Of a DNA stretch of 64,000 nt, positions 5,712 through 51,282 are shown piece by piece. A model generated the notes under the pieces. That model had not been told where the DNA came from. It did no database searches and worked only from the letters and a program-made list of their open reading frames with translations. Source of the stretch: Alphaproteobacteria bacterium (lineage in GTDB: Bacteria; Pseudomonadota; Alphaproteobacteria; SP197); NCBI GenBank assembly GCA_965228895.1, contig OZ245842.1, forward strand, positions 2,839,964-2,903,963, given 5' to 3'. Numbering within the stretch: position 1 is the stretch's first letter; every line of letters starts with the position of its first letter. A program made the position numbers and the translations under genes.

Positions 5712-7808
5712 TTAACCTTCGATCCTGGAGAAGTCGGCCACACGGTCGAGCGCATGGCGAATACCTGATAGCAGACGCAGGCGGTTTTGACGCAAGCCAG
5801 CGTCGTCGCAATTGACAGTCACCTCATCAAAAAACGCATCGACCGGTGCGCGAAGACCGGAAAGCGCCGCCATGGCATCGGCGAAACGTTCTTCGTTCAG
5901 GGCCTCATCAGCCTGACTTGCGGCCTCCGCGAGCCCGGCGACAACGGCCTTTTCTTCGTCCTCTTCAAGCGCGCTCGTGTCGACGTTGCCATCATAGACG
6001 ACGCCGTCCTTCTTTTCCTCGATCTTCACGATGTTGCCGGCACGCCGATAGGCGGTCAGCAGGTTGGCGCCGTCCTCGCTCGCCAGGAACGCGCCCAACG
6101 CTTCGACCTTGGCGAGCAGGCGCACCAGATCGTCTTCACCGCTTTGTGCAAACACCGCATCAATGAGGTCGTGACGCACGCCCTCGCCGCGCAGATGCAC
6201 CTTCAACCGGTCGGCGATGAAGGCGAGTAGCTCGACGTTCTGCGTTATGACACCTTTGTCACGTCCCGGCCAACTGACCATCCCGCGCCCGTCGGGTTTG
6301 TACAGTTCGACCGCCAATTCAAAAGCGTCCATCAATCCAACTCGTAGTCCGTTTTCCACGACAAGTCGGATTAGACCAAGCGCAGCGCGCCGCAGGGCGA
6401 AGGGATCTTTCGAACCAGTTGGTTTCTCTTGGATCAAGAAAAACCCTACCAGCGTATCGATCTTATCCGCCAATGCGACGGCCACGCTTTCCGGTGCGCT
6501 GGGGCAAACATCGCCCGGCCCTTGAGGCGCATAGTGTTCGGCGATGGCCAAGGCGACGGCGTCATCCTCGCCGTCATGGCGGGCGTAGTAGGACCCCATC
6601 AGGCCTTGAAGATCGGGGAACTCGCCGACCATCTCGGTGGTCAGGTCGGCTTTGGCGAGGTTTGCGGCGCGGGCGGCCTTCTCGGCATCGCAATCCGGAA
6701 TCGCCTCGGCCAGCCGTCGCGCGAGCTTGATGAGGCGCGTTGTCTTGTTCGCGACCGTACCAAGCTTGGCGTGAAACACCACGGCACCCAGATCGTCGAC
6801 GCGATCTGCAAGCTCCCGCTTGCGGTCCTGATCCCAGAAATGACGGGCGTCTGCGAGGCGCGCGTTCAGCACCCGCTCGTTGCCGCCGGTGACCGTCTTG
6901 CCGTCGTCGAGGCCCGGCGCGTTGGCGGCAAAGATGAAACGCGGCGCGAGCTTTCCCTGCCTGTCGCGCACCGGCAGATAGCGTTGGTGGGAGGTCATGG
7001 AGCTGACCAGGACTTCCGGCGGCACTTCCATGAAGGCATCGTCGAAGGAGCCCATCAGCACGACCGGCCACTCGACCAGGCCGGCGATCTCGTCGAATAG
7101 GCCCTTCGGCGCGTCGACGGCAAGGCCGGCCTCTGTCGCCAGACGCGCCGCGCCCTCTTCGACCAACGCGCGCCGCTCGCCGCCTTCGAGCACGACCTTG
7201 GCCTCGCGCAGTTTCGTCTCATAGTCGGCGAACCCCGATACCGAAAACGCGCCGGGCGCCAGGAACCGATGCCCCTCGGTCTCGTCGCCCGATGTCACGG
7301 GACCGAAGGCGAACGGCACGACGGCGCCGTCGAACAGGGCGGTGATGCGGTGCATGGGCCGGACCCAGCGTTCGTCATGATCGCCCCAGCGCATGGATTT
7401 CGGCCACGGCAGCGCGGCCATGGTGGCGGGCAGGATCTCGGCCAGCACCTCGCCGGTCGCCCGGCCCTGACGTTCGACCACGGCGAACCAGCAGGGACCC
7501 TTGTCAGTATCGCGTTCGACGAGGTCGCCGGCGGCAATCCCGGCGGAGCGCGCAAACCCTTCGACCGCCTTGTCCGGTGCGCCGACCTTCGGGCCCTTAC
7601 GCTCTTCCTTCAGGTCTGGCTGGCTCGCTGCCAGACCGTCGATCACGAGGGTCAGCCGGCGTGGCGTGGCGAAATGGCGCGCGGGCTCGTGCTCAAGCCG
7701 CGCCTCGCCAAGCGCCTTGGTAACAAGGTCCGCAAGATCGCCCGCGGCGCGTTCCTGCATGCGCGCGGGGATCTCCTCGGAGAAGATTTCAAACAGAAGC
7801 TCAGCCAT
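5712..7808 (-). CDS. glyS: Glycine--tRNA ligase beta subunit
   Basis: The product is 698 aa. The N-terminus [18 protein letters not shown] is classic GlyS. The start overlaps the glyQ stop. Confidence 0.95.
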
Positions 7809-19958: not shown

Positions 19959-20549
19959 TCAACGTTCTTCGACCCCTTTGATCGCGATATCGATGAGTTC
20001 AAGCCTCCGTGCTGGCGGGAATCGGCGCGGCCGAGCGATGACGCACGAATAGATTCCGTCGGCCGCCGCGATCAGGCTGTCCGTGGCGTCCCGCAAACTC
20101 AGGCTCAGCGCCAATGAGCCGTCCGCCACCGCGCTTTCGATCCGGGATTGCACGATCTGGTCAAAGTGCTTGTACATGCGCCGAGAACGCTCGCCCATGG
20201 CGCCACTTTTCGGTGCAGCAGCCAGCCGGAGGAAGAAGACGCTGCCCGACACCGCGTCGGCGAAAAGACACAGGCGCTGAAGCGTGCGGCGAAGGGCGTC
20301 GCGTCCGTCGACAGCGCCCTTGGCGACCGCCGACAGATCGTCGAACAACCGGCGATCTTGAAGATCGAGCGCATGAGCGATCAATGCCTCTCGGTCGCCG
20401 AAGTAATGGGTCAGCAGTCCGGTCGTCGAACCCAGCTCCGCCGCGATCTTACGCATCGTGACCTGCTCCAGCCCATCACGCGCCATAACCGTCAGAACGG
20501 CCTCGGCAATCTGCGCCCTCTGGGCTCCGTGATCGACGTGTCTGGGCAT
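19959..20549 (-). CDS. TetR family transcriptional regulator
   Basis: The HTH is VTMRKIAAELGSTTGLLTHYF. The ATG at 20549 is preferred over the TTG at 20564. Confidence 0.85.
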   Translation of the reverse strand: MPRHVDHGAQRAQIAEAVLTVMARDGLEQVTMRKIAAELGSTTGLLTHYFGDREALIAHALDLQDRRLFDDLSAVAKGAVDGRDALRRTLQRLCLFADAVSGSVFFLRLAAAPKSGAMGERSRRMYKHFDQIVQSRIESAVADGSLALSLSLRDATDSLIAAADGIYSCVIARPRRFPPARRLELIDIAIKGVEER

Positions 20550-20558
20550 GTTATTTCG

Positions 20559-20594
20559 TAACAAAACAATTGTTGCGCAACAACTGTTTTGTTA
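20559..20594. promoter_or_regulatory. 36-bp near-perfect palindrome; candidate TetR operator
   Basis: The sequence taacaaaacaattgttgcg/cgcaacaactgttttgtta has one mismatch between its two overlapping 19-nt arms. It sits 10 bp from the TetR start, in the divergent intergenic region with the ureohydrolase gene. Confidence 0.6.
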
Positions 20595-42922: not shown

Positions 42923-44062
42923 CTACCCGTCGGTTGTCTCGAACAGGGTGAGCACGCCGGTATAGGCATAGAGGCGGTCGAACGAGATCTCGCCGTTGCC
43001 GAAGAAACCAACCATCGGCACGTCGCCCAACACCTCGCGCACGATCGCCATCTCGCTCTGGGCGCCATCAAACATGTTGGGGCCGCGCGCCAGGCAGCTG
43101 AAGTAGAGACCTCCGGCCACGTTACCGGCGCGCTTGCGAACGTCGCCGACCATTCGCTTCAGATCGGCTTCCGCGGCCGCGCGGTCGCGGCGGCAGAACA
43201 TCAGGGCATCGCCCATGCCGACACGCTCGCCGATCACCACCGCGCCACTGTTGGGTTCGATGCCGACCAGATTGCGCACCAGATAATCACCGGTATCGGA
43301 TCCGGACACCGGCAGACCAACGTGAAGGGATCCCGACAATTGGCGCGGGTCCGAAATACCCTCAGTCGCCAGTTCCTCGACGAACACATCCATCGCCGGG
43401 CGGTCATTCAAACAATGAACGACGTTCTCATCGACCTTGGTCACCTGATGAATACCGCCCAGCGGCACGCAGCCCTGCGTTAAACCGGTGCTGACGCGCA
43501 CAGAGCTGTCGAAAAGAACACCAGAGATCTCTCGCTCGACCGGGCGCCCCGCCATCTGCATGGTTGCGCCGCGCGACGAACTTAAGCCACCGACCAGATA
43601 GCCGTCGGTATCGCGCGCCAGACCGGCGATCGCCTCGACCAGATTGGGCATACGCGGATCACCATGGACGACGGCGAAACTACCCTGCCCCATCGCGCCG
43701 CCGCGCCGGTCGTCGTAACTGCGGACCGCCTCCTCCGCGCTGGTGAAAAGGCTCAAGGCGTCTTCGGGAAACCTGCCGGTCATCGCCGCAACCGCCGGCC
43801 GGTCAAAGTACTCGCTGCCGGCTGCGCAGATTCCGATGCCGACCGTGCCGCACCAGCTCGTCACACCGGTCGCGGCGGCCAGGAACCCCGCGATTTCACC
43901 GAGGGCGTCGGCGAAATGATCGGTGACATAGACAAAGCCCAGCGTGTCGTCGTCGCGGTCGCCCAAAACCTCGGCAACCGATCGGGCGGCCTGCTGCCAT
44001 GTTTCCGCGCTGGCATGGGCAACGTGAAACTGGCCGGTCACAACGTCAGATGTTTCGTTCAT
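42923..44062 (-). CDS. FIST-domain sensory protein
   Basis: The product is 379 aa. The overall FIST_N/FIST_C pattern is present (…LGFVYVTDHFADALGEI…, …GFFGNGEI… near the C-terminus). This recognition is from memory. Confidence 0.55.
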   Translation of the reverse strand: MNETSDVVTGQFHVAHASAETWQQAARSVAEVLGDRDDDTLGFVYVTDHFADALGEIAGFLAAATGVTSWCGTVGIGICAAGSEYFDRPAVAAMTGRFPEDALSLFTSAEEAVRSYDDRRGGAMGQGSFAVVHGDPRMPNLVEAIAGLARDTDGYLVGGLSSSRGATMQMAGRPVEREISGVLFDSSVRVSTGLTQGCVPLGGIHQVTKVDENVVHCLNDRPAMDVFVEELATEGISDPRQLSGSLHVGLPVSGSDTGDYLVRNLVGIEPNSGAVVIGERVGMGDALMFCRRDRAAAEADLKRMVGDVRKRAGNVAGGLYFSCLARGPNMFDGAQSEMAIVREVLGDVPMVGFFGNGEISFDRLYAYTGVLTLFETTDG

Positions 44063-44182
44063 ATAACCAGAATAGGCTCGCCAACTGACGGGTCAACAGG
44101 ATCACGTCCTTCGCCTATAATGTGACCATGAGAGACCACATCACTTGCCGGCCGTGACCGCGCGATCAACGGCGGCATCACC

Positions 44183-44800
44183 GTGACAGCGAGATGCGGT
44201 TGGTTTCTGGGGTTCGCGTTGTCATGCCTGGTCATCGCACCGGCCACCGCCGAATCGATCACGGTCAAAGGACTGACCTTCACCGATGAGCTCGGCGGGT
44301 TTCGCCTGTTGGCGGCATGGGGCAGCGGTTCGCTCGAAGACCCGATCACGGTGGTCGAAGAAATCACCAGCACCAGGGGCGCCGTCTTGATGATCCGAGG
44401 CGTTGGCCCGCATACCGGCAACGCCATTCCGACCAACCATCCCGCCGGCTTCGCACTGCGCAAGATCGTCACCAACGCGACCAACCAGACCTGGACGTTC
44501 TTTGATATCGAGTTGCAGAAGTTGCTGGGTACACCAAGCGACATCTACGACGGGCTGTCGTTCGGCCAGGATGCGCAGGCCGGGCGGCCGTTTACCTCCA
44601 ATCGATTCGGCCAAAGCGTGTCGCAGGACGAGCCGCGCGATCACGTCACGTTTTTTGATGGCGTGGTCGAACCGGGCGAAACCGTCAGCATGGACTTCGT
44701 CATCACCGCAACCGGTTACGTCACAGAACTGATGCTGCTGCAAAAACCGAACCGCCCGGTCGCATCGATCGACGGCGGCGCCACGGACCACGGCGGATGA
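44183..44800 (+). CDS. Exported protein of unknown function, translationally coupled to the cyclase
   Basis: It has a GTG start and the signal peptide WFLGFALSCLVIAPATAES. The stop TGA overlaps the ATG of the next gene (ATGA at 44797-44800). Confidence 0.5.
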   Translation: MTARCGWFLGFALSCLVIAPATAESITVKGLTFTDELGGFRLLAAWGSGSLEDPITVVEEITSTRGAVLMIRGVGPHTGNAIPTNHPAGFALRKIVTNATNQTWTFFDIELQKLLGTPSDIYDGLSFGQDAQAGRPFTSNRFGQSVSQDEPRDHVTFFDGVVEPGETVSMDFVITATGYVTELMLLQKPNRPVASIDGGATDHGG

Positions 44801-46464
44801 TCGCGCGCATCAGACTGGGCTCCGGGCTGGTGCTTATGGTCTTTCTTGCCAGCCACCTGATCAACCACGCGCTGGGCATCCATTCTCTGGCCTGGATGGA
44901 GGCTGGCCGGCGTGTCTTCGATGGGGTTTGGCGCAGTACGCCGGGCACGGTCGTGCTGTGCGCGGCACTGGTCCTCCATCTGGGCCTGGTCTTCTGGGCG
45001 CTCTACCGGCGCAACAGCCTGGCCATGCCGCCACGCGAGTGGGCCCAGCTCTTGCTGGGGCTCACCATACCGCTGCTGGTCGCAGAACACGTGGCCGGCA
45101 CAAGGGGCGCCAACGAACTGTTCGGCGTCAACGACACTTATCCCTACGTTATCTATGCGCTATGGGTGGACGCGCCGTGGAAAGGCGTTCTGCAGTCGGT
45201 CCTGATCATCACCGCCTGGCTGCACGGCTGCTTGGGGATACACTTCTGGCTGCGCCTGAAACCCTGGTATCGGCGCTGGCAATGGTGCGCCTTCAGCTTG
45301 GCAATCCTGGTCCCCATCCTTGCCCTTGGCGGTTTTGTCGGCGCCGGCATTGACGTCGCGCGCTTGGCCAGTGACCCCGACTGGCTGCCCGAGTTTCTCG
45401 CCTCGACCGGCGTCGGGCGCGTCTTCGAACAGCTCTCAGCCTTCATGGCCCAAGCGCAACTCTGGACGATCGCCGTGGTCGTGGCCTTGGTCGCCACCGT
45501 TCTGCTTCTCAGATGGCTTCGCATGGCATTTGCCGCCCGGCGAAAAGCCCCTCGCCTGACCTACCCCAACGGTCAGGTGGTCGAGATCGCGCCGGGCTCG
45601 ACCGTGCTGGAGACCAGCCGCGCCGCCGACATTCCCCACGCCTCGGTTTGCGGCGGGCGCGGCCGTTGCTCGACCTGCCGCGTCCGGCTGGGCCACGGTC
45701 GAGATGATCTGGAACCGCCCGACGCCGATGAGCGCAAGGTCTTGGAGCGCATCGGCGATCCACCCCATGTCCGCTTGGCGTGTCAGCTTCGCCCGACCGC
45801 GGACCTTGCAGTCACCCCCTTGCTGCCCGCGCACGCCGGCCCCGCCGACGCGGTCATGCGCCAACGACCCGCCGGCGCCGGACGGGAACAGGAGATCGCC
45901 GTATTGTTTGCCGACCTCCGGGGCTTCACCACGCTGTCGGAAGCCAACCTTCCCTATGACACCGTCTTTGTCCTGAACCGCTATTTCGAAGCCATGGGCC
46001 ATGCCATCGAGGGCGCCGGCGGGCAGATCGACAAGTTTATCGGTGACGGCGTCATGGCGCTGTTTGGCGTCGACGGCACGATCGATAATGGATGCCGCCA
46101 GGCACTCGACGCGACGGAGGCCATGAGCCACGCGCTTGCCGCGCTCAACCGTTCGCTCGCCAAGGAGATTGAACAGCCGCTTCGACTCGGCATCGGCCTG
46201 CATGTCGGGCCGGCGGTGATCGGCGAAATGGGGTACGGCGAAACCATGCACATGACGGCAATCGGCGACGTCGTGAACACGGCGAGCCGGCTGGAGGGTG
46301 CGACGAAAGATCTGCGCTGCGATCTCGTTGTCTCAGAGCGTGTCGTGGAGCTGGCCGGCGTGCCCGAGATGCCCGGGTTGCCTCACGATCTGACGGTTCG
46401 CGGCAAGCGGGAAACCCTTCGGGTACGCGCCATCAGCAACCTCGCCGGCACACCAAAGTTATAA
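44797..46464 (+). CDS. Membrane [2Fe-2S]-ferredoxin-domain adenylate/guanylate cyclase
   Basis: About 240 aa of TM helices with conserved histidines (SHLINHALGIH, AEHVAG, WLHGCLGIHFW) come first. A plant-type ferredoxin domain follows (CGGRGRCSTCRV...LACQ). The protein ends in a class III cyclase core (IAVLFADLRGFT, KFIGDGVMALFG). Confidence 0.8.
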   Translation: MIARIRLGSGLVLMVFLASHLINHALGIHSLAWMEAGRRVFDGVWRSTPGTVVLCAALVLHLGLVFWALYRRNSLAMPPREWAQLLLGLTIPLLVAEHVAGTRGANELFGVNDTYPYVIYALWVDAPWKGVLQSVLIITAWLHGCLGIHFWLRLKPWYRRWQWCAFSLAILVPILALGGFVGAGIDVARLASDPDWLPEFLASTGVGRVFEQLSAFMAQAQLWTIAVVVALVATVLLLRWLRMAFAARRKAPRLTYPNGQVVEIAPGSTVLETSRAADIPHASVCGGRGRCSTCRVRLGHGRDDLEPPDADERKVLERIGDPPHVRLACQLRPTADLAVTPLLPAHAGPADAVMRQRPAGAGREQEIAVLFADLRGFTTLSEANLPYDTVFVLNRYFEAMGHAIEGAGGQIDKFIGDGVMALFGVDGTIDNGCRQALDATEAMSHALAALNRSLAKEIEQPLRLGIGLHVGPAVIGEMGYGETMHMTAIGDVVNTASRLEGATKDLRCDLVVSERVVELAGVPEMPGLPHDLTVRGKRETLRVRAISNLAGTPKL

Positions 46465-46533: not shown

Positions 46534-47733
46534 GTGGGTTTAAGATCGGTGCAGAAACGATCCGGTATTTTGGTGTCCGTGGTCTTGGCCAGTGCGCTTG
46601 TGCTGTCGCCGGCCTATGCCGACTTCGAAGCCGGCATGCAGGCCTATGACGCCGGTGACTACGCGGCCGCCATCTCGGAATGGCAGCCGCTGGCCGAACA
46701 AGGCAATCTGGAAGCCCAATTCGGCATGGGCATCATCTATGAGAACGGCCGCGGCATTGGCCGTGATTATACCGAAGCAGCCAAGTGGTATGCCGCCGCA
46801 GCCGAGGGCGGCCATCCCGGCGCCCAGTTCAATCTTGGAAACATCTACCAACAGGGCCTGGGTGTACCCAAGGACCCCTCGCGGGCGGTCTACTGGTGGA
46901 CGTTGTCGGCGGCTCAGGGCTTGTCGGATGCCCAACTGAACCTGGGAATCGCCTATCACCGCGGCGACGGCGTCGCGCGTGACCAGGACTTGGCGTTCTC
47001 GTGGTTCGAGCGGGCGGCCGAAGCGGGCAACCCTATGGGCCAGTTCTCCGCCGGTTACGCCTATGAAACCGGCCTGGGGACCGAGGTCAATTTGAATGAA
47101 GCACGCCGCCTCTACGCGGCGGCTGCCGAAGCCGGTATCCAGCAGGCTGCAAATCGGCTGGCCGTTCTGGGTCCGCCCGATGACGTGGCCGCCACCGAAC
47201 TCGTCCCCGAACCGGTCATGGAGACCGAGCCCGTCGAGTCGATTGAGTCGGCCGAGGTGATTCTGGAAGACGCGCCAAGCGAGGACATCACGGAGACCGA
47301 GCCCGTCGAGACAGACGAGGTCGCGGAAACCGTGCCGGAGCCGACCGTTGGCGACAGCGGTACGGAGCCGACAACCGATAGTTCGGCGATCGACTACAGC
47401 GCGGTCGAAGCGACCGAGACGGTCGAAACTGTCGAAACAGCCGCTGTCGAGACCGAGACGACCGTTGCCCCCGCGCAAGGCGGCGGCCCCTATATCCAGA
47501 TCGCCGCATACCTGAGCGAAGACCGTGCCGAGGCCGCGTGGCAGGACATTACCGGGCGGTTTCCCGATCTGCTGGGCGGCCTGCCCCACCGTGTCTTGAT
47601 GGTCGATCTTGGTGGTGAATTGGGCACGGTCTATCGCCTGCAGGCCGGACCGATGCCGGCCCAGGCTGAAGCGCAGGCTATCTGTAACGAGCTAAAGGCC
47701 AAGAACGCCGATTGTTTCCTGGTTGGACCTTAG
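46534..47733 (+). CDS. Sel1-repeat protein with an acidic linker and a C-terminal SPOR (peptidoglycan-binding) domain
   Basis: A signal-like N-terminus is followed by repeated Sel1 units (AQFGMGIIYENGRGIGRDYTEAAKWY...), a Glu/Thr/Pro-rich linker and a SPOR-like end (YIQIAAYLSEDRAEAAW...YRLQAGPM). Confidence 0.7.
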   Translation: MGLRSVQKRSGILVSVVLASALVLSPAYADFEAGMQAYDAGDYAAAISEWQPLAEQGNLEAQFGMGIIYENGRGIGRDYTEAAKWYAAAAEGGHPGAQFNLGNIYQQGLGVPKDPSRAVYWWTLSAAQGLSDAQLNLGIAYHRGDGVARDQDLAFSWFERAAEAGNPMGQFSAGYAYETGLGTEVNLNEARRLYAAAAEAGIQQAANRLAVLGPPDDVAATELVPEPVMETEPVESIESAEVILEDAPSEDITETEPVETDEVAETVPEPTVGDSGTEPTTDSSAIDYSAVEATETVETVETAAVETETTVAPAQGGGPYIQIAAYLSEDRAEAAWQDITGRFPDLLGGLPHRVLMVDLGGELGTVYRLQAGPMPAQAEAQAICNELKAKNADCFLVGP

Positions 47734-47736
47734 ATC

Positions 47737-48129
47737 CTACTGAGCGTCCGGGCTGTTGGCTTTCAGATAGGCAATGACGTTGGCGATGTCGTCCTCCTTG
47801 GTCAGGCGGAACGTCATTTTGACGCCAGAGATGTATTTGGTCGGCCCGGCCAACCATTCGGTCAGTGTTGCTTCGTCCCAAACGATGCCGGATTCGGGCA
47901 GCTTGCCGGAATCGAGCGATCCCGCTTCGTTTGAACCCGCCGCGCTGCCGTAGACCCCAAACAAATTTGGACCTTGCTTCGGTGCGCCGCCTTGTTCGAT
48001 CGTGTGGCAGACCTTGCAGCGGTTGAACACCTTCTCACCTTGGGCAACATCGCCTTCGGCCCAAGCCGATTGCGCGGTGAGCCCAAGAGCGAGCGTGAGC
48101 AAAGATCCGAAAGCGGCAACACGTTTCAT
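47737..48129 (-). CDS. Periplasmic class I cytochrome c (c2-like)
   Basis: There is a signal peptide. CKVCHTIE is the haem-binding motif. The distal methionine lies in GVKMTFRLTKEDDIANVIAYL. Confidence 0.85.
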   Translation of the reverse strand: MKRVAAFGSLLTLALGLTAQSAWAEGDVAQGEKVFNRCKVCHTIEQGGAPKQGPNLFGVYGSAAGSNEAGSLDSGKLPESGIVWDEATLTEWLAGPTKYISGVKMTFRLTKEDDIANVIAYLKANSPDAQ

Positions 48130-48227: not shown

Positions 48228-48716
48228 TTACGATCCCGTGCACTCACCGCAGTTTTCGACCGGCAGATCCCTGGCCAACCATCCCGGACCGTCGCCGCTG
48301 CCGACCATGCCCTCGCCAATATCGTAGATCTGTTCAAACCCCTCGCCCTCCAGAAGGACATGCGCGATCGCGGAACGAACGCCGGCGGCGCAAATCAACG
48401 CGATCGGGCGTGACCTGTCGCCACCGGCAAGAGCCGTGACCTCTTCGACAAAATCCAGGTTCGGCAGACCATAGGCCAGAAACAGACTTGCCCTGCCAGC
48501 GCCCTCAGGAATACCGGTTTCGCGCCACTCCGATTCCGTCCGGATGTCGACAATCAGAAGCTCGCCCTGGCCAGACTGCTGCCATGCGTCCGGTGCCGAG
48601 AGCAGACCGTCGCCCTCCGCATAAGCCGGCGCAATAACAAAGAACACGAGCGCAAAAGCAAGGGATGGGCCGCGAACGGCCCATCCCCAGATCATCAAGC
48701 AGACGTTGGTTGTCAT
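48228..48716 (-). CDS. Exported single-domain rhodanese (sulfurtransferase)
   Basis: The start is the ATG at 48716. The signal peptide is ...LAFALVFFVIAPAYAEG. The active-site loop is CAAGVRS. LIVDIRTESEW is typical of the rhodanese fold. Confidence 0.75.
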   Translation of the reverse strand: MTTNVCLMIWGWAVRGPSLAFALVFFVIAPAYAEGDGLLSAPDAWQQSGQGELLIVDIRTESEWRETGIPEGAGRASLFLAYGLPNLDFVEEVTALAGGDRSRPIALICAAGVRSAIAHVLLEGEGFEQIYDIGEGMVGSGDGPGWLARDLPVENCGECTGS

Positions 48717-48729
48717 CGGTTGATGATGA

Positions 48730-51282
48730 TCAGTTTCGATACTCCTCGGGGATGAAGAGCAGCGAATCCACCTCGGCGCCAATATGACAGTCGATGCAGA
48801 ACGCCACCTTTTCTGTACCCTCCCCGTTTGTGGTGCCGACAGTCTTGCCGTTGGGCATGATCAGGGTGTAGCGCCAGTCATCGGAGTCGGCGTTAAATCC
48901 CGAAGCCATCTTCTCCATGACAAACAACGGTCCGGGCACCACCGTGCCCTTTGCCGTCACCGCGAAGCTGTCCTTGGCCAGCACGGCACCAGCAGGCATG
49001 GTGCCGCCGTTTTCGTACTCGCCATATGACTGCGCCGCTGCGGCGTCAGCGTAATTGTTCACGAAGCGTCCGCCGTGGGTGTACGACTTGTAGGGCACGG
49101 AGTTGTACTTTTCCCATCCGCTGTAGGCGGACGAGATGTCAAGACCGGTGCTGGACATCAAATTGGCCTTGGCATAGCCGACTTCCATCTGCGCCTTGAT
49201 GCAGTCGTAAGCCGCCACAGCCTCGTCATTGGTCAGTTCGATGTCGACGCCGGCACCGCAGCCGCCGCACGCACCACAGCCGCCACACGCACCGCAACCG
49301 CCGCACGCACCACAGGCTCCACAAGCACCACAAGCACCACAGCCGCCACACGCACCGCAGCCACCGCAAGCGCCACAGGCTCCGCAAGCGCCGCAGGCCG
49401 AGCAGGCATCGCAGGCACTGCAGCCCGCCGCCATGCCGGCCGCAGGAACCGCCTCCGGATTCTCCTGCAAGCTCGCGCCGCAACCGCCGCACGCGCCACA
49501 GGCACCGCACGCGCCGCAGCCGCCACAGGCTCCGCAATCGGCCCAAGCGATGCTCGGCACCACGCAACCGGTGTCGGCTTCTGCCGCACAACCGCCGCAT
49601 GCACCACAACCACCGCACGCGCCACACGCTCCGCAAGCACCACACGCGCCGCAGCCACCACAGGCTCCGCATGCACCGCATGCACCGCATGCACCGCATG
49701 CACCGCATGCGTCACAAGCAGAACATGCGCCGCAAGCAGAACATGCGCCGCAGCCTGCCGCCATGCCGCTTGGCAACGCTTCCGGGTTCTCATGGCTGGC
49801 GCCATCTTCGTCGTCGGACCCGTCGGATTTCTCACCGCGCGGTTCCCACCAGTCCTCGCCGTCGCGTTTGGCACGCACTGCAAACTTCATGGCGCCATTC
49901 GAGTCTTCCAGGCTGGCGCCGCAACATCCACCACACGCACCGCAGGCATCACAGGCCGCGCAACACGCCGAGCACGCATCACACGCGCCGCAAGCCGAGC
50001 ACGCATCGCAGGCACCGCAGCCCGCCGCCATGCCAGTCGGCAGGGCGTCCGGATTGTCGAGGCTGGCGCCGCAGCATCCACCACACGCACCGCAGGCATC
50101 ACAAGCCGCACAACATGCCGAACACGCATCACACGCGCCGCAAGCCGAGCACGCATCGCACGCACCGCAGCCCGCCGCCATGCCGGTCGGCAGGGCGTCC
50201 GGATTGTCGAGGCTGGCGCCGCAGCATCCACCGCACGCACCGCAGGCATCACAGGCCGCACAACATGCCGAACACGCATCGCACGCGCCGCAAGCCGAGC
50301 ACGCATCGCACGCACCGCAGCCCGCCGCCATGCCGGTCGGCAGGGCGTCCGGATTGTCGAGGCTTGCGCCGCAACATCCACCGCACGCTCCGCAGGCATC
50401 ACAAGCCGCGCAACACGCCGAGCACGCATCACACGCGCCGCAAGCCGAGCACGCATCGCAGGCACCGCAGCCCGCCGCCATGCCAGTCGGCAGGGCGTCC
50501 GGATTGTCGAGGCTGGCGCCGCAACATCCACCGCAAGCTCCGCAGGCATCACAGGCCGCGCAACACGCCGAGCACGCATCACACGCGCCGCAAGCCGAGC
50601 ACGCATCGCACGCACCGCAGCCAGCCGCCATGCCGGTCGGCAGGGCGTCCGGATTGTCGAGGCTGGCGCCGCAACATCCACCGCAAGCTCCGCAGGCATC
50701 ACAAGCCGCGCAACATGCCGAACACGCATCACACGCGCCGCAAGCCGAGCACGCATCGCACGCACCGCAGCCCGCCGCCATGCCAGTCGGCAGGGCGTCC
50801 GGATTGTCGAGGCTTGCGCCGCAACATCCACCACACGCACCGCAGGCATCACAAGCCGCGCAACATGCCGAACACGCATCACACGCGCCGCAAGCCGAGC
50901 ACGCATCGCACGCACCGCAGCCCGCCGCCATGCCAGTCGGCAGGGCGTCCGGATTGTCGAGGCTTGCGCCGCAACATCCACCACACGCACCGCAGGCATC
51001 ACAGGCCGCGCAACACGCCGAACACGCATCGCACGCGCCGCAAGCCGAGCACGCATCGCACGCACCGCAGCCCGCCGCCATGCCGGTCAAAGCACGATCG
51101 GCGATGGACAAGGAGGCGGGCATGGGAACGGCGGCCGGATTTTCGACCGCGCGTGGATTGACAAGGCGACAGCTGGCGCGACCACAAGGCGCTGCCGCAA
51201 CGCTGACGGCAAGCGCAACGCCGGCGCCCATAAAGGCCGGCAGCATCGTGCTCGACAGCAGATTACGTTTGAGTTCACTCAT
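48730..51282 (-). CDS. Sec-signal hyper-cysteine (Cys-x-x)n tandem-repeat protein with a C-terminal cytochrome P460-family haem-c domain
   Basis: GGGAGG lies upstream of the ATG at 51282. The N-terminal signal is LPAFMGAGVALAVSVAAA. Eight 50-aa units (MAAGCGACDACSACGACDACSACCAACDACGACGGCCGASLDNPDALPTG) are followed by two degenerate Cys modules. The C-terminal ~190 aa has DDWRYTLI and FCIDCHIGAEVDSLLFIPEEY, resembling P460 (NWAFYIF...CAACHKENAKTDMVFTQFYP, from memory). Confidence 0.75.
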   Translation of the reverse strand: MSELKRNLLSSTMLPAFMGAGVALAVSVAAAPCGRASCRLVNPRAVENPAAVPMPASLSIADRALTGMAAGCGACDACSACGACDACSACCAACDACGACGGCCGASLDNPDALPTGMAAGCGACDACSACGACDACSACCAACDACGACGGCCGASLDNPDALPTGMAAGCGACDACSACGACDACSACCAACDACGACGGCCGASLDNPDALPTGMAAGCGACDACSACGACDACSACCAACDACGACGGCCGASLDNPDALPTGMAAGCGACDACSACGACDACSACCAACDACGACGGCCGASLDNPDALPTGMAAGCGACDACSACGACDACSACCAACDACGACGGCCGASLDNPDALPTGMAAGCGACDACSACGACDACSACCAACDACGACGGCCGASLDNPDALPTGMAAGCGACDACSACGACDACSACCAACDACGACGGCCGASLEDSNGAMKFAVRAKRDGEDWWEPRGEKSDGSDDEDGASHENPEALPSGMAAGCGACSACGACSACDACGACGACGACGACGACGGCGACGACGACGACGGCGACGGCAAEADTGCVVPSIAWADCGACGGCGACGACGACGGCGASLQENPEAVPAAGMAAGCSACDACSACGACGACGACGGCGACGGCGACGACGACGACGGCGACGGCGACGGCGAGVDIELTNDEAVAAYDCIKAQMEVGYAKANLMSSTGLDISSAYSGWEKYNSVPYKSYTHGGRFVNNYADAAAAQSYGEYENGGTMPAGAVLAKDSFAVTAKGTVVPGPLFVMEKMASGFNADSDDWRYTLIMPNGKTVGTTNGEGTEKVAFCIDCHIGAEVDSLLFIPEEYRN
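49911..51081. repeat. Tandem direct repeat, 150-bp unit x ~7.8, inside the Cys-rich gene
   Basis: The anchor gcccgccgccatgcc recurs at about 50020, 50170, 50320, 50470, 50620, 50770, 50920 and 51070. In the one adjacent pair I compared, the units are about 95% identical at the DNA level. Confidence 0.95.

Follow-up and report, generated by a model that had tools for sequence, protein, structure and literature searches.

Class III cyclases work as homodimers. Among them, Beltz et al. (2016, eLife 5:e13098, PMC4821796) described a cluster 1 of 30 listed sequences, ferredoxin-linked class IIIb cyclases from alpha- and betaproteobacteria, e.g. Rhodopseudomonas palustris Q132R4. The anchors of these proteins possess six transmembrane (TM) helices, resemble the cytochrome b of fumarate reductase/succinate dehydrogenase (FRD/SDH) and contain four precisely spaced intramembrane His residues, with two haems predicted, while a cytosolic ferredoxin module is located between anchor and catalytic domain (PMC4821796). 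According to the passages on S. meliloti CyaC (SMc01818; Wissig et al. 2019, Mol Microbiol 112:16) in Klein 2023 and a 2022 review (PMC10463352, PMC9552081), this enzyme binds a [2Fe-2S] cluster as well as two haem B, with ubiquinone acting as oxidant or reductant of the haem and oxidation as the step that activates the cyclase. The same passages state that CyaC was purified alone and ascribe the quinone response to its own haems.

The window, i.e. the whole 64,000-nucleotide stretch of DNA that was analysed, contains a locus whose 555-aa cyclase is fitted exactly by the published description of cluster 1. We consider it very probable that this protein belongs to the CyaC-type adenylate cyclases with redox regulation, that the exported protein encoded upstream is a lineage-specific accessory or co-expressed partner, and that the divergent FIST gene is a neighbour by local synteny (Table 1). 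The cyclase shares with S. meliloti CyaC the order of 6TM anchor, [2Fe-2S] domain and class IIIb domain, the length class, the conserved TM1-TM4 His residues and four conserved Cys. When compared by residue spacing, CyaC residues K410/T484/N491/R495 correspond to K413/T487/N494/R498 here with a constant offset of +3. Conceptually, the cyclase is nothing new. It is the gene context that differs: S. meliloti cyaC adjoins cycR, which is a TetR gene, as well as a LysR gene, whereas the window's cyclase has the exported-partner gene upstream and, as the next gene downstream, a Sel1/SPOR gene. No accessory exported protein is mentioned for cluster 1 (PMC4821796).

Table 1 Features of the FIST, partner and cyclase locus (positions are those of the window).
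Feature	Position	Strand	Details
FIST gene	42923-44062	-	379 aa; stand-alone FIST_N + FIST_C; ORF list and Pfam
Divergent intergenic region, FIST to partner	44063-44182	.	120 bp
Sigma-70-like site (putative)	44093-44121	+	TCAACA-17-TATAAT
Sigma-70-like site (putative)	44096-44069	-	TTGACC-16-TATTCT
Partner gene, exported protein (predicted)	44183-44800	+	205 aa, GTG start
Signal peptide of partner, residues 1-23	44183-44251	+	N-terminus MTARCGWFLGFALSCLVIAPATA, followed by ES
ATGA stop/start overlap, partner/cyclase	44797-44800	+	Read from sequence; translational-coupling geometry
Cyclase gene	44797-46464	+	555 aa
Six-TM di-haem cytochrome-b-like anchor (predicted)	44797-45540	+	Cyclase residues 1-248
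Candidate haem ligands H20 / H24	44854-44856 / 44866-44868	+	TM1
Candidate haem ligand H61	44977-44979	+	TM2
Candidate haem ligand H98	45088-45090	+	TM3
Candidate haem ligand H143	45223-45225	+	TM4
[2Fe-2S] ferredoxin domain	45550-45819	+	Residues ~252-341; C285, C291, C294, C329
Class IIIb cyclase catalytic domain	45877-46434	+	Residues ~361-546

The gene calls bear out the arrangement described in the earlier note, with a FIST gene divergent from a signal-peptide protein that ends in an ATGA overlap with the cyclase. Two overlapping sigma-70-like sites are present in the spacer between the divergent genes, compared to 0.6 expected from shuffles; both are consensus matches and hence putative. 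A terminator-like site was looked for at the partner/cyclase junction and none was found. In this lineage, the partner is probably co-transcribed with the cyclase and translationally coupled to it.

The AlphaFold2 (AF2) model of the cyclase (pLDDT 85.6) displays six long TM helices (residues 2-28, 48-71, 79-109, 127-152, 158-191 and 206-248; pLDDT >90), and hydropathy analysis likewise yields six hydrophobic segments, with an N-in topology by the positive-inside rule. This places H20, H24 and H98 in the outer membrane half and H61 and H143 in the inner half, a depth distribution that fits one distal and one proximal pair. All sequence motifs pointed out previously (SHLINHALGIH, AEHVAG, WLHGCLGIHFW and CGGRGRCSTCRV...LACQ) are found in the protein, and the TM-domain His conservation that the earlier note had hinged its reading on holds, as H20, H24, H61, H98 and H143 do not vary among 40 full-length homologues and 20 that cover the TM domain only. 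With one invariant His more than the four expected, the TM1 haem ligand could be either H20 or H24.

Structure comparison reveals the anchor has the fold of the di-haem cytochrome b of fumarate reductase/succinate dehydrogenase. Compared to the di-haem subunit of type-B quinol:fumarate reductase/succinate:quinone reductase (Wolinella succinogenes FrdC, PDB 1e7p chain C; b558-family SdhC), the window's anchor has six TM helices instead of five, and is fused to signalling domains where FrdC docks FrdA/FrdB; the two share 16% sequence identity and no HMM-level match. The TM domain did not match any entry in Pfam (E <= 10) or NCBIfam (E <= 1), nor any PDB sequence by phmmer or with a 20-sequence profile, and its assignment hence rests on the predicted structure together with the published analysis.

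A [2Fe-2S] domain (Pfam Fer2, residues 258-334, E 6e-9) is located between the anchor and the catalytic domain, and its four Cys ligands (C285, C291, C294 and C329) are invariant among the homologues compared. The domain had been called plant-type, a label that requires CX4CX2CX29C spacing and chloroplast-type ferredoxins as the nearest relatives; the [2Fe-2S] assignment stands, but with a spacing of CX5CX2CX34C the plant-type label is dropped. In the catalytic domain (Guanylate_cyc, residues 363-517, E 1e-17), the metal-binding D373 and D417, the substrate-specifying K413 and the transition-state R498 are invariant among homologues, while the substrate-specifying T487 and transition-state N494 are near-invariant. 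The single chain thus carries the two Asp, the Lys and Thr (for Asp) and the Asn and Arg of class IIIb, implying a homodimer with two active sites. Given the Lys/Thr substrate-specifying pair (K413/T487), the product should be cAMP rather than the cGMP that had been left open as an alternative.

While the anatomy, residue conservation and fold matches of the cyclase are shown by the analysis, the binding of haem and Fe-S, the response to quinone and its direction are proposed by analogy with the characterised homologue CyaC. The cyclase would probably act as a homodimer, with an anchor that is predicted to be a di-haem cytochrome b like that of type-B fumarate reductase/succinate dehydrogenase. 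The distal haem, by the periplasmic face, would be bound by H20 or H24 (TM1) and H98 (TM3), and the proximal haem, by the cytoplasmic face, by H61 (TM2) and H143 (TM4). As in S. meliloti CyaC, the membrane ubiquinone/ubiquinol pool would oxidise or reduce the haems, and the redox change would be relayed by TM6 to the cytoplasmic [2Fe-2S] domain and from there to the catalytic domain of class IIIb; cAMP synthesis would be expected to start upon oxidation. Among quinone-pool redox sensors, ArcB works with redox-active cysteines and signals by a phosphorelay, whereas the window's cyclase has predicted haem b and [2Fe-2S] and a cAMP output. Of the earlier note's redox-to-cyclic-nucleotide reading, the conversion of membrane redox state to cAMP by a haem-b TM bundle and a [2Fe-2S] domain is supported, an idea that is already in the literature (Beltz 2016, PMC4821796; S. 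meliloti CyaC, in the passages of PMC10463352 and PMC9552081), while the periplasmic co-sensor is not.

The partner begins with a Sec-type signal peptide, also conserved in homologues, and the mature protein is predicted to be an exported, stand-alone all-beta sandwich; it contains neither Cys nor a recognisable cofactor motif. A lipoprotein assignment was rejected, the signal-peptide Cys lying outside any lipobox and not being conserved. A search for structural relatives returned none that was informative. The partner family comprises at least 2041 clusters, every one labelled 'hypothetical'. Its nearest family is DUF6423 (PF19987), with a weak local match to residues 87-177 (E 2e-4) that covers approximately half of the profile and scores 21.4 bits, below the gathering cut-off of 29.7. 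DUF6423 was also matched at E <= 0.01 by 9 of 23 partner-family members (best E 1.4e-5). On sequence grounds, the partner may at most be a distant DUF6423 relative; DUF6423 itself is without known function, and no mention of it was found in the literature searched.

Tight coupling of partner and cyclase genes is seen in one small lineage. At all 12 linked loci assessable for the junction (the window included), the two genes either overlap by -4 or -7 nt or are separated by gaps of +5 to +13 nt, despite the proteins having diverged to ~50-55% identity. Five loci (L008, L009, L010, L013 and L127) have kept the pair without the FIST and Sel1/SPOR flanks. Beyond this lineage, the two families are mostly apart. 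Across 80 partner-centred genome loci, a cyclase follows in 10, while 69 have none within the fetched flanks, with valS, ilvD or a giant coiled-coil protein as neighbours; the remaining locus (L080) was too short to be judged. Conversely, the partner precedes the cyclase in 2 of the 68 cyclase-centred metagenome loci with enough upstream sequence and is missing from the other 66. Co-occurrence across genomes, which the earlier note had put forward as a check on the pairing, is not that of a dedicated accessory subunit of CyaC-type cyclases.

It is hence unlikely that the partner is a dedicated periplasmic co-sensor, docking to the cyclase loops near the distal haem/quinone site and adding or gating a periplasmic signal. 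The ATGA overlap, the tight junctions in the linked loci and the persistence of the pair beyond its flanking genes are all consistent with such a role, and the AF2 model contains three periplasmic cyclase loops with short helices (residues 31-45, 115-125 and 196-204) that offer a possible docking surface. However, a crude co-adaptation test found no periplasmic-loop residues specific to partner-linked cyclases, and L002 retains FIST and partner with no cyclase. Pairing in one lineage, the separate distribution of the two families, the lack of Cys or a recognisable cofactor motif, and the reported purification of CyaC alone with a quinone response ascribed to its own haems together leave the co-sensor role unsupported.

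We similarly view as doubtful a model in which the cyclase of this lineage recruited a widely distributed, once independent exported beta-sandwich as a stoichiometric periplasmic subunit that binds the periplasmic loops above the distal haem, turning what would otherwise sense membrane redox state alone into a two-input cAMP switch. Such a subunit, made by translational coupling, may control how quinone or haem is reached, or may supply a second, periplasmic input in the form of a ligand or metal. A functional link between partner and cyclase is nonetheless possible given the tight, conserved coupling within the lineage, and the subclade with the conserved overlap could have an extra input absent from CyaC. 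In our preferred explanation, the partner is most likely periplasmic and lineage-specific, either as an accessory or as a co-expressed protein, and is not a general component of the sensor. Should the two proteins interact, this would provide a first functional handle on the hypothetical partner family, and would show that a membrane adenylate cyclase of bacteria can have a periplasmic accessory.

Both domains of the FIST protein score above the Pfam thresholds (FIST, E 1.8e-24, 87.1 bits vs a cut-off of 23.2; FIST_C, E 1.9e-24, 86.7 bits vs 28.5). We find it very unlikely that FIST, partner and cyclase constitute a single signalling module, in which FIST senses a small molecule and either feeds the cyclase or is controlled by cAMP. 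The divergent gene arrangement with its short spacer and overlapping promoter-like sites would suit such a module, and among 10 assessable loci, 5 have FIST upstream of the partner (L001, L002, L004, L006 and L007). These are the closest relatives only, and in L004 and L007 the distance is ~1.1 kb, leaving room for another gene between. FIST is absent at L003, L005, L008, L009 and L010, each with at least ~1.7 kb of upstream sequence, and was found beside the cyclase in 0 of 80 cyclase-centred metagenome loci. As the FIST-partner pair occurs without a cyclase in L002, the adjacency behaves as local synteny of close relatives, and the FIST gene is a neighbour with no demonstrated link to cyclase or partner.

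Haem is a common gas sensor, and in quinol:fumarate reductases it is di-haem cytochromes b with this fold that move electrons across the membrane. Genes for a cytochrome c, a rhodanese and a cytochrome-P460-domain protein are located 1-5 kb downstream of the cyclase. That the anchor is a sensor of diatomic gases (O2, NO, CO) or acts as a transmembrane electron carrier, rather than reporting on the quinone pool, is nevertheless highly improbable. With four or five invariant His, the haems should be bis-His ligated and six-coordinate and offer no free site, as is the case in FrdC. CyaC, the homologue that has been characterised, responds to ubiquinone in the passages cited above (PMC10463352, PMC9552081), the partner has no redox cofactor to take up electrons, and the redox genes downstream lie on the other strand and are not kept beside the cyclase in other loci.

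The CyaC-type family proves very large: where 30 sequences were listed in 2016, at least 7861 clusters (90% identity) are now counted, a figure that is a lower bound as the search scored the 8000 candidates with most words in common. Nearly all of the 120 clusters listed are 535-602 aa in length and contain PF00111 and PF00211, while the TM domain alone as query retrieved 2005 representatives. Neither Pfam nor NCBIfam has a model for the di-haem anchor, and the family is without a solved structure. Annotation is generic ('adenylate/guanylate cyclase domain-containing protein'). In a neighbour-joining (NJ) tree of 86 cyclases, the partner-linked proteins fall in three groups with deep nodes unresolved, a pattern compatible with a single as well as a repeated origin of the linkage. 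Homologues of the window's cyclase are present in Sinorhizobium sp. RAC02 (48% identity over 552 aa) and on an R. etli plasmid (46% identity). The neighbours of the rhizobial plasmid homologues are unrelated to those in the window, and no gene context is conserved across the family. The relatives of the source genome are alphaproteobacterial MAGs.

ORF calls place a FIST gene, an exported protein (the partner) and a 555-aa cyclase (see table) exactly where the earlier note had put them. The FIST gene and the partner ORF lie on opposite strands, 120 bp apart, and the TGA stop of the partner shares bases with the ATG start of the cyclase (ATGA). Both this overlap and the divergent FIST neighbour had been described from the sequence, and every His/Cys motif quoted for the 555-aa protein was found. 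The FIST-partner intergenic region holds one sigma-70-like candidate site per strand (2 found versus 0.6 expected), while a search for a terminator-like site at the partner/cyclase junction found none. The Sel1/SPOR gene directly 3' of the cyclase encodes an acidic Glu/Thr/Pro-rich linker between its Sel1 repeats and the (septal peptidoglycan-binding) SPOR domain.

Features of the window and of two related loci
Feature	Location	Strand	Description
FIST protein, 379 aa	42923-44062	-	FIST_N + FIST_C, well over Pfam thresholds
Partner, 205 aa	44183-44800	+	GTG start; Sec-type signal peptide (…LVIAPATA/ES)
Cyclase, 555 aa	44797-46464	+	Pfam Fer2 (residues 258-334), Guanylate_cyc (363-517)
Sel1/SPOR protein	46534-47733	+	Signal peptide, four Sel1 repeats, C-terminal SPOR
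Cytochrome c	47737-48129	-	
Rhodanese	48228-48782	-	
Exported ORF, 850 aa	48730-51282	-	Cytochrome_P460 (PF16694, E 1.3e-6, residues 735-839)
Second class III cyclase, 621 aa	18002-19867	-	dCache_1 + HAMP + Guanylate_cyc
TetR	19959-20564	-	
FIST-partner pair, locus L002 (OZ242015.1)	6001-7016		Divergent
Giant protein, locus L043	6596-12358		

The AlphaFold model of the cyclase (pLDDT 85.6, membrane part > 90) has six long TM helices, and its periplasmic loops carry three further, short ones. By hydropathy and the positive-inside rule the topology is N-in. H20/H24 (TM1) and H98 (TM3) then fall in the outer half of the bilayer, and H61 (TM2) together with H143 (TM4) in its inner half, a layout that fits one distal plus one proximal bis-His haem. 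All five of these histidines are invariant in an alignment of 40 homologues (48-86% identical), and H149 is nearly so. The predicted Fe-S ligands C285/C291/C294/C329 show no variation in the same alignment; catalytic D373, K413, D417 and R498 are likewise invariant, with T487 and N494 conserved at >= 90%. Given the full class III catalytic set and the Lys/Thr pair of class IIIb, the protein should be an adenylate cyclase acting as a homodimer. In structure comparisons the catalytic domain matches Spirulina CyaC (1wc1, score 22.1), and the Fe-S domain matches the adrenodoxin-type E. coli Fdx (1i7h, 14.0). Matches of the TM domain are the di-haem cytochrome b of Wolinella succinogenes fumarate reductase (1e7p_C, 13.3, 190 residues aligned), D. 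gigas QFR subunit C (12.5) and a b558-family SdhC (11.6). In the Wolinella structure of Lancaster et al. from 1999, the haem ligands reportedly sit on TM helices one to four of five, the distal haem being held by helices 1 and 3 and the proximal by 2 and 4. This is the pairing that we infer for the cyclase anchor.

Such proteins were grouped by Beltz et al. 2016 (PMC4821796) as 'cluster 1', 30 class IIIb cyclases from alpha- and beta-proteobacteria in which a ferredoxin lies between the catalytic domain and a 6TM anchor resembling FRD/SDH cytochrome b, with four precisely spaced His and two predicted haems. According to summaries in PMC10463352 and PMC9552081, Wissig et al. 2019 then characterised S. 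meliloti CyaC (SMc01818), finding two haem B in the 6TM domain plus a [2Fe-2S] cluster; ubiquinone can both oxidise and reduce the haem, and oxidation activates the cyclase. The CyaC residues mutated by Klein et al., K410/T484 and N491/R495, are each numbered three lower than their counterparts here, K413/T487 and N494/R498. Compared with SMc01818 by described features and residue positions, the 555-aa protein has all CyaC-type features that can be examined in silico (6TM anchor, [2Fe-2S], class IIIb catalytic domain), and belongs to a known, experimentally characterised kind. Homologues in Sinorhizobium sp. RAC02 and on an R. etli plasmid are 48% (over 552 residues) and 46% identical, respectively. 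A search with residues 1-347 (TM + Fer2) matched at least 7861 of the 90%-identity clusters, and among the 120 matches listed nearly all are 535-602 aa with PF00111 + PF00211. The TM domain alone gave 2005 representatives at 50% identity, most of full cyclase length. Where a name is given, members of this very large family are annotated only as 'adenylate/guanylate cyclase domain-containing protein', 'adenylate cyclase' or '2Fe-2S iron-sulfur cluster binding domain-containing protein'; the di-haem 6TM anchor has no model in Pfam or NCBIfam and no solved structure.

Only the exported partner is left unexplored by earlier work: a lineage-specific, probably translationally coupled protein from a large uncharacterised family. 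Its signal peptide is kept in homologues, the mature protein (~180 aa) is free of cysteine, and one of its histidines, H86, is nearly invariant; the model is a confident 12-strand beta-sandwich (pLDDT 83.5). In the HMM search proposed earlier, the nearest Pfam family, DUF6423, stays sub-threshold (21.4 versus 29.7 bits; a match in 9/23 homologues). A profile search gave at least 2041 clusters, all ~200-aa stand-alone 'hypothetical proteins' in which no domain fusions were found, from Azospirillum, Dongiaceae, Geminicoccaceae and related Alphaproteobacteria.

Co-occurrence of partner and cyclase across genomes, a further check proposed in the earlier note, proved scarce. Of 80 partner-centred loci from species-representative genomes, 10 (L001, L003-L010, L013) have a CyaC-type cyclase directly after the partner, all among the closest relatives of the window (partner identity >= 52%). 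L080 is too short to assess, and the fetched flanks of the other 69 contain no cyclase; their neighbours include valS on the upstream side (21 loci) and, on the downstream side, ilvD (17) or a giant coiled-coil membrane protein (14). Conversely, 80 cyclase-centred metagenome loci (cyclases 46-54% identical) include 68 with >= 700 nt upstream, and the partner is present in two of these (L090, L127). Coupling is strict within the linked group: the genes overlap by 4 nt in the window, L001, L005, L008, L009 and L127 and by 7 nt in L010 and L013, or lie 5 to 13 nt apart in L003, L004, L006 and L007. The pair is kept without FIST and Sel1/SPOR flanks in L008-L010, L013 and L127. Group-specific residues were sought in the periplasmic loops of linked cyclases and none were found, and a neighbour-joining tree neither supports nor excludes a single clade of linked cyclases. 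The partner, although apparently co-expressed with the cyclase in the window lineage, is no general part of the sensor. That it is a true accessory subunit, or the periplasmic co-sensor of the earlier note, is rather unlikely: besides the scarce co-occurrence, it lacks any cofactor motif, and published accounts describe CyaC as purified alone and ascribe its quinone response to its own haems.

A three-part module of FIST, partner and cyclase is less probable still. Ten close loci extend far enough upstream for this to be judged: FIST precedes the partner in L001, L002, L004, L006 and L007 (~1.1 kb away in L004 and L007) and is absent from L003, L005 and L008-L010; it was found near none of the 80 cyclase-centred metagenome loci. 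The adjacency thus behaves as local synteny, not as a conserved module.

Most probably, the cyclase is a CyaC-type sensor of the quinone-pool redox state; its anatomy, residue conservation and fold matches are direct observations, its cofactor binding and regulation being judged from the characterised homologue. Ubiquinone/ubiquinol would fix the redox state of the distal (H20 or H24, with H98) and proximal (H61 + H143) haems, and the signal would travel by way of TM6 and the [2Fe-2S] domain, reaching the homodimeric class IIIb catalytic domain, which makes cAMP; by analogy with CyaC, oxidation would turn the enzyme on. The redox-to-cyclase idea of the earlier note appears right, and re-derives published work (Beltz et al. 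2016; Wissig et al. 2019). Gas sensing or transmembrane electron transfer by the di-haem anchor is highly improbable.

The Sel1/SPOR gene keeps its place after the cyclase in L001, L003, L004 and L007 but not in the other linked loci. In L002, FIST and partner (61% identity each) are retained and a Sel1-repeat gene occupies the place of the cyclase, so the cyclase was either inserted between partner and Sel1/SPOR gene in the window lineage or deleted in that of L002. The giant protein (~1650-1980 aa), encoded ~40-70 nt 3' of partner homologues in L038, L042, L043, L049, L053-L055, L062 and L065, occurs in many Rhodospirillales-like genomes; an N-terminal TM region and ~1500 repetitive, coiled-coil-like residues precede a conserved C-terminal domain (…NVPEDAWQRYLDGD…DPEDL…SSDVGKLY). 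The second class III cyclase, adjoined by a TetR gene, indicates that the genome has several cyclases, like rhizobia. The 850-aa ORF, which adjoins the rhodanese and cytochrome c genes, has ~650 N-terminal residues of tandem ~49-aa repeats (~8 copies plus variants; …GCGACDACSACGACDACSACCAACDACGACGGCCGASLDNPDALPTGMAA…), almost only Cys, Ala, Gly and Asp, and carries a CIDCH haem motif in its C-terminal Cytochrome_P460 domain; it is unusual for a P460 haem domain to follow so extreme a Cys-rich stretch of low complexity.
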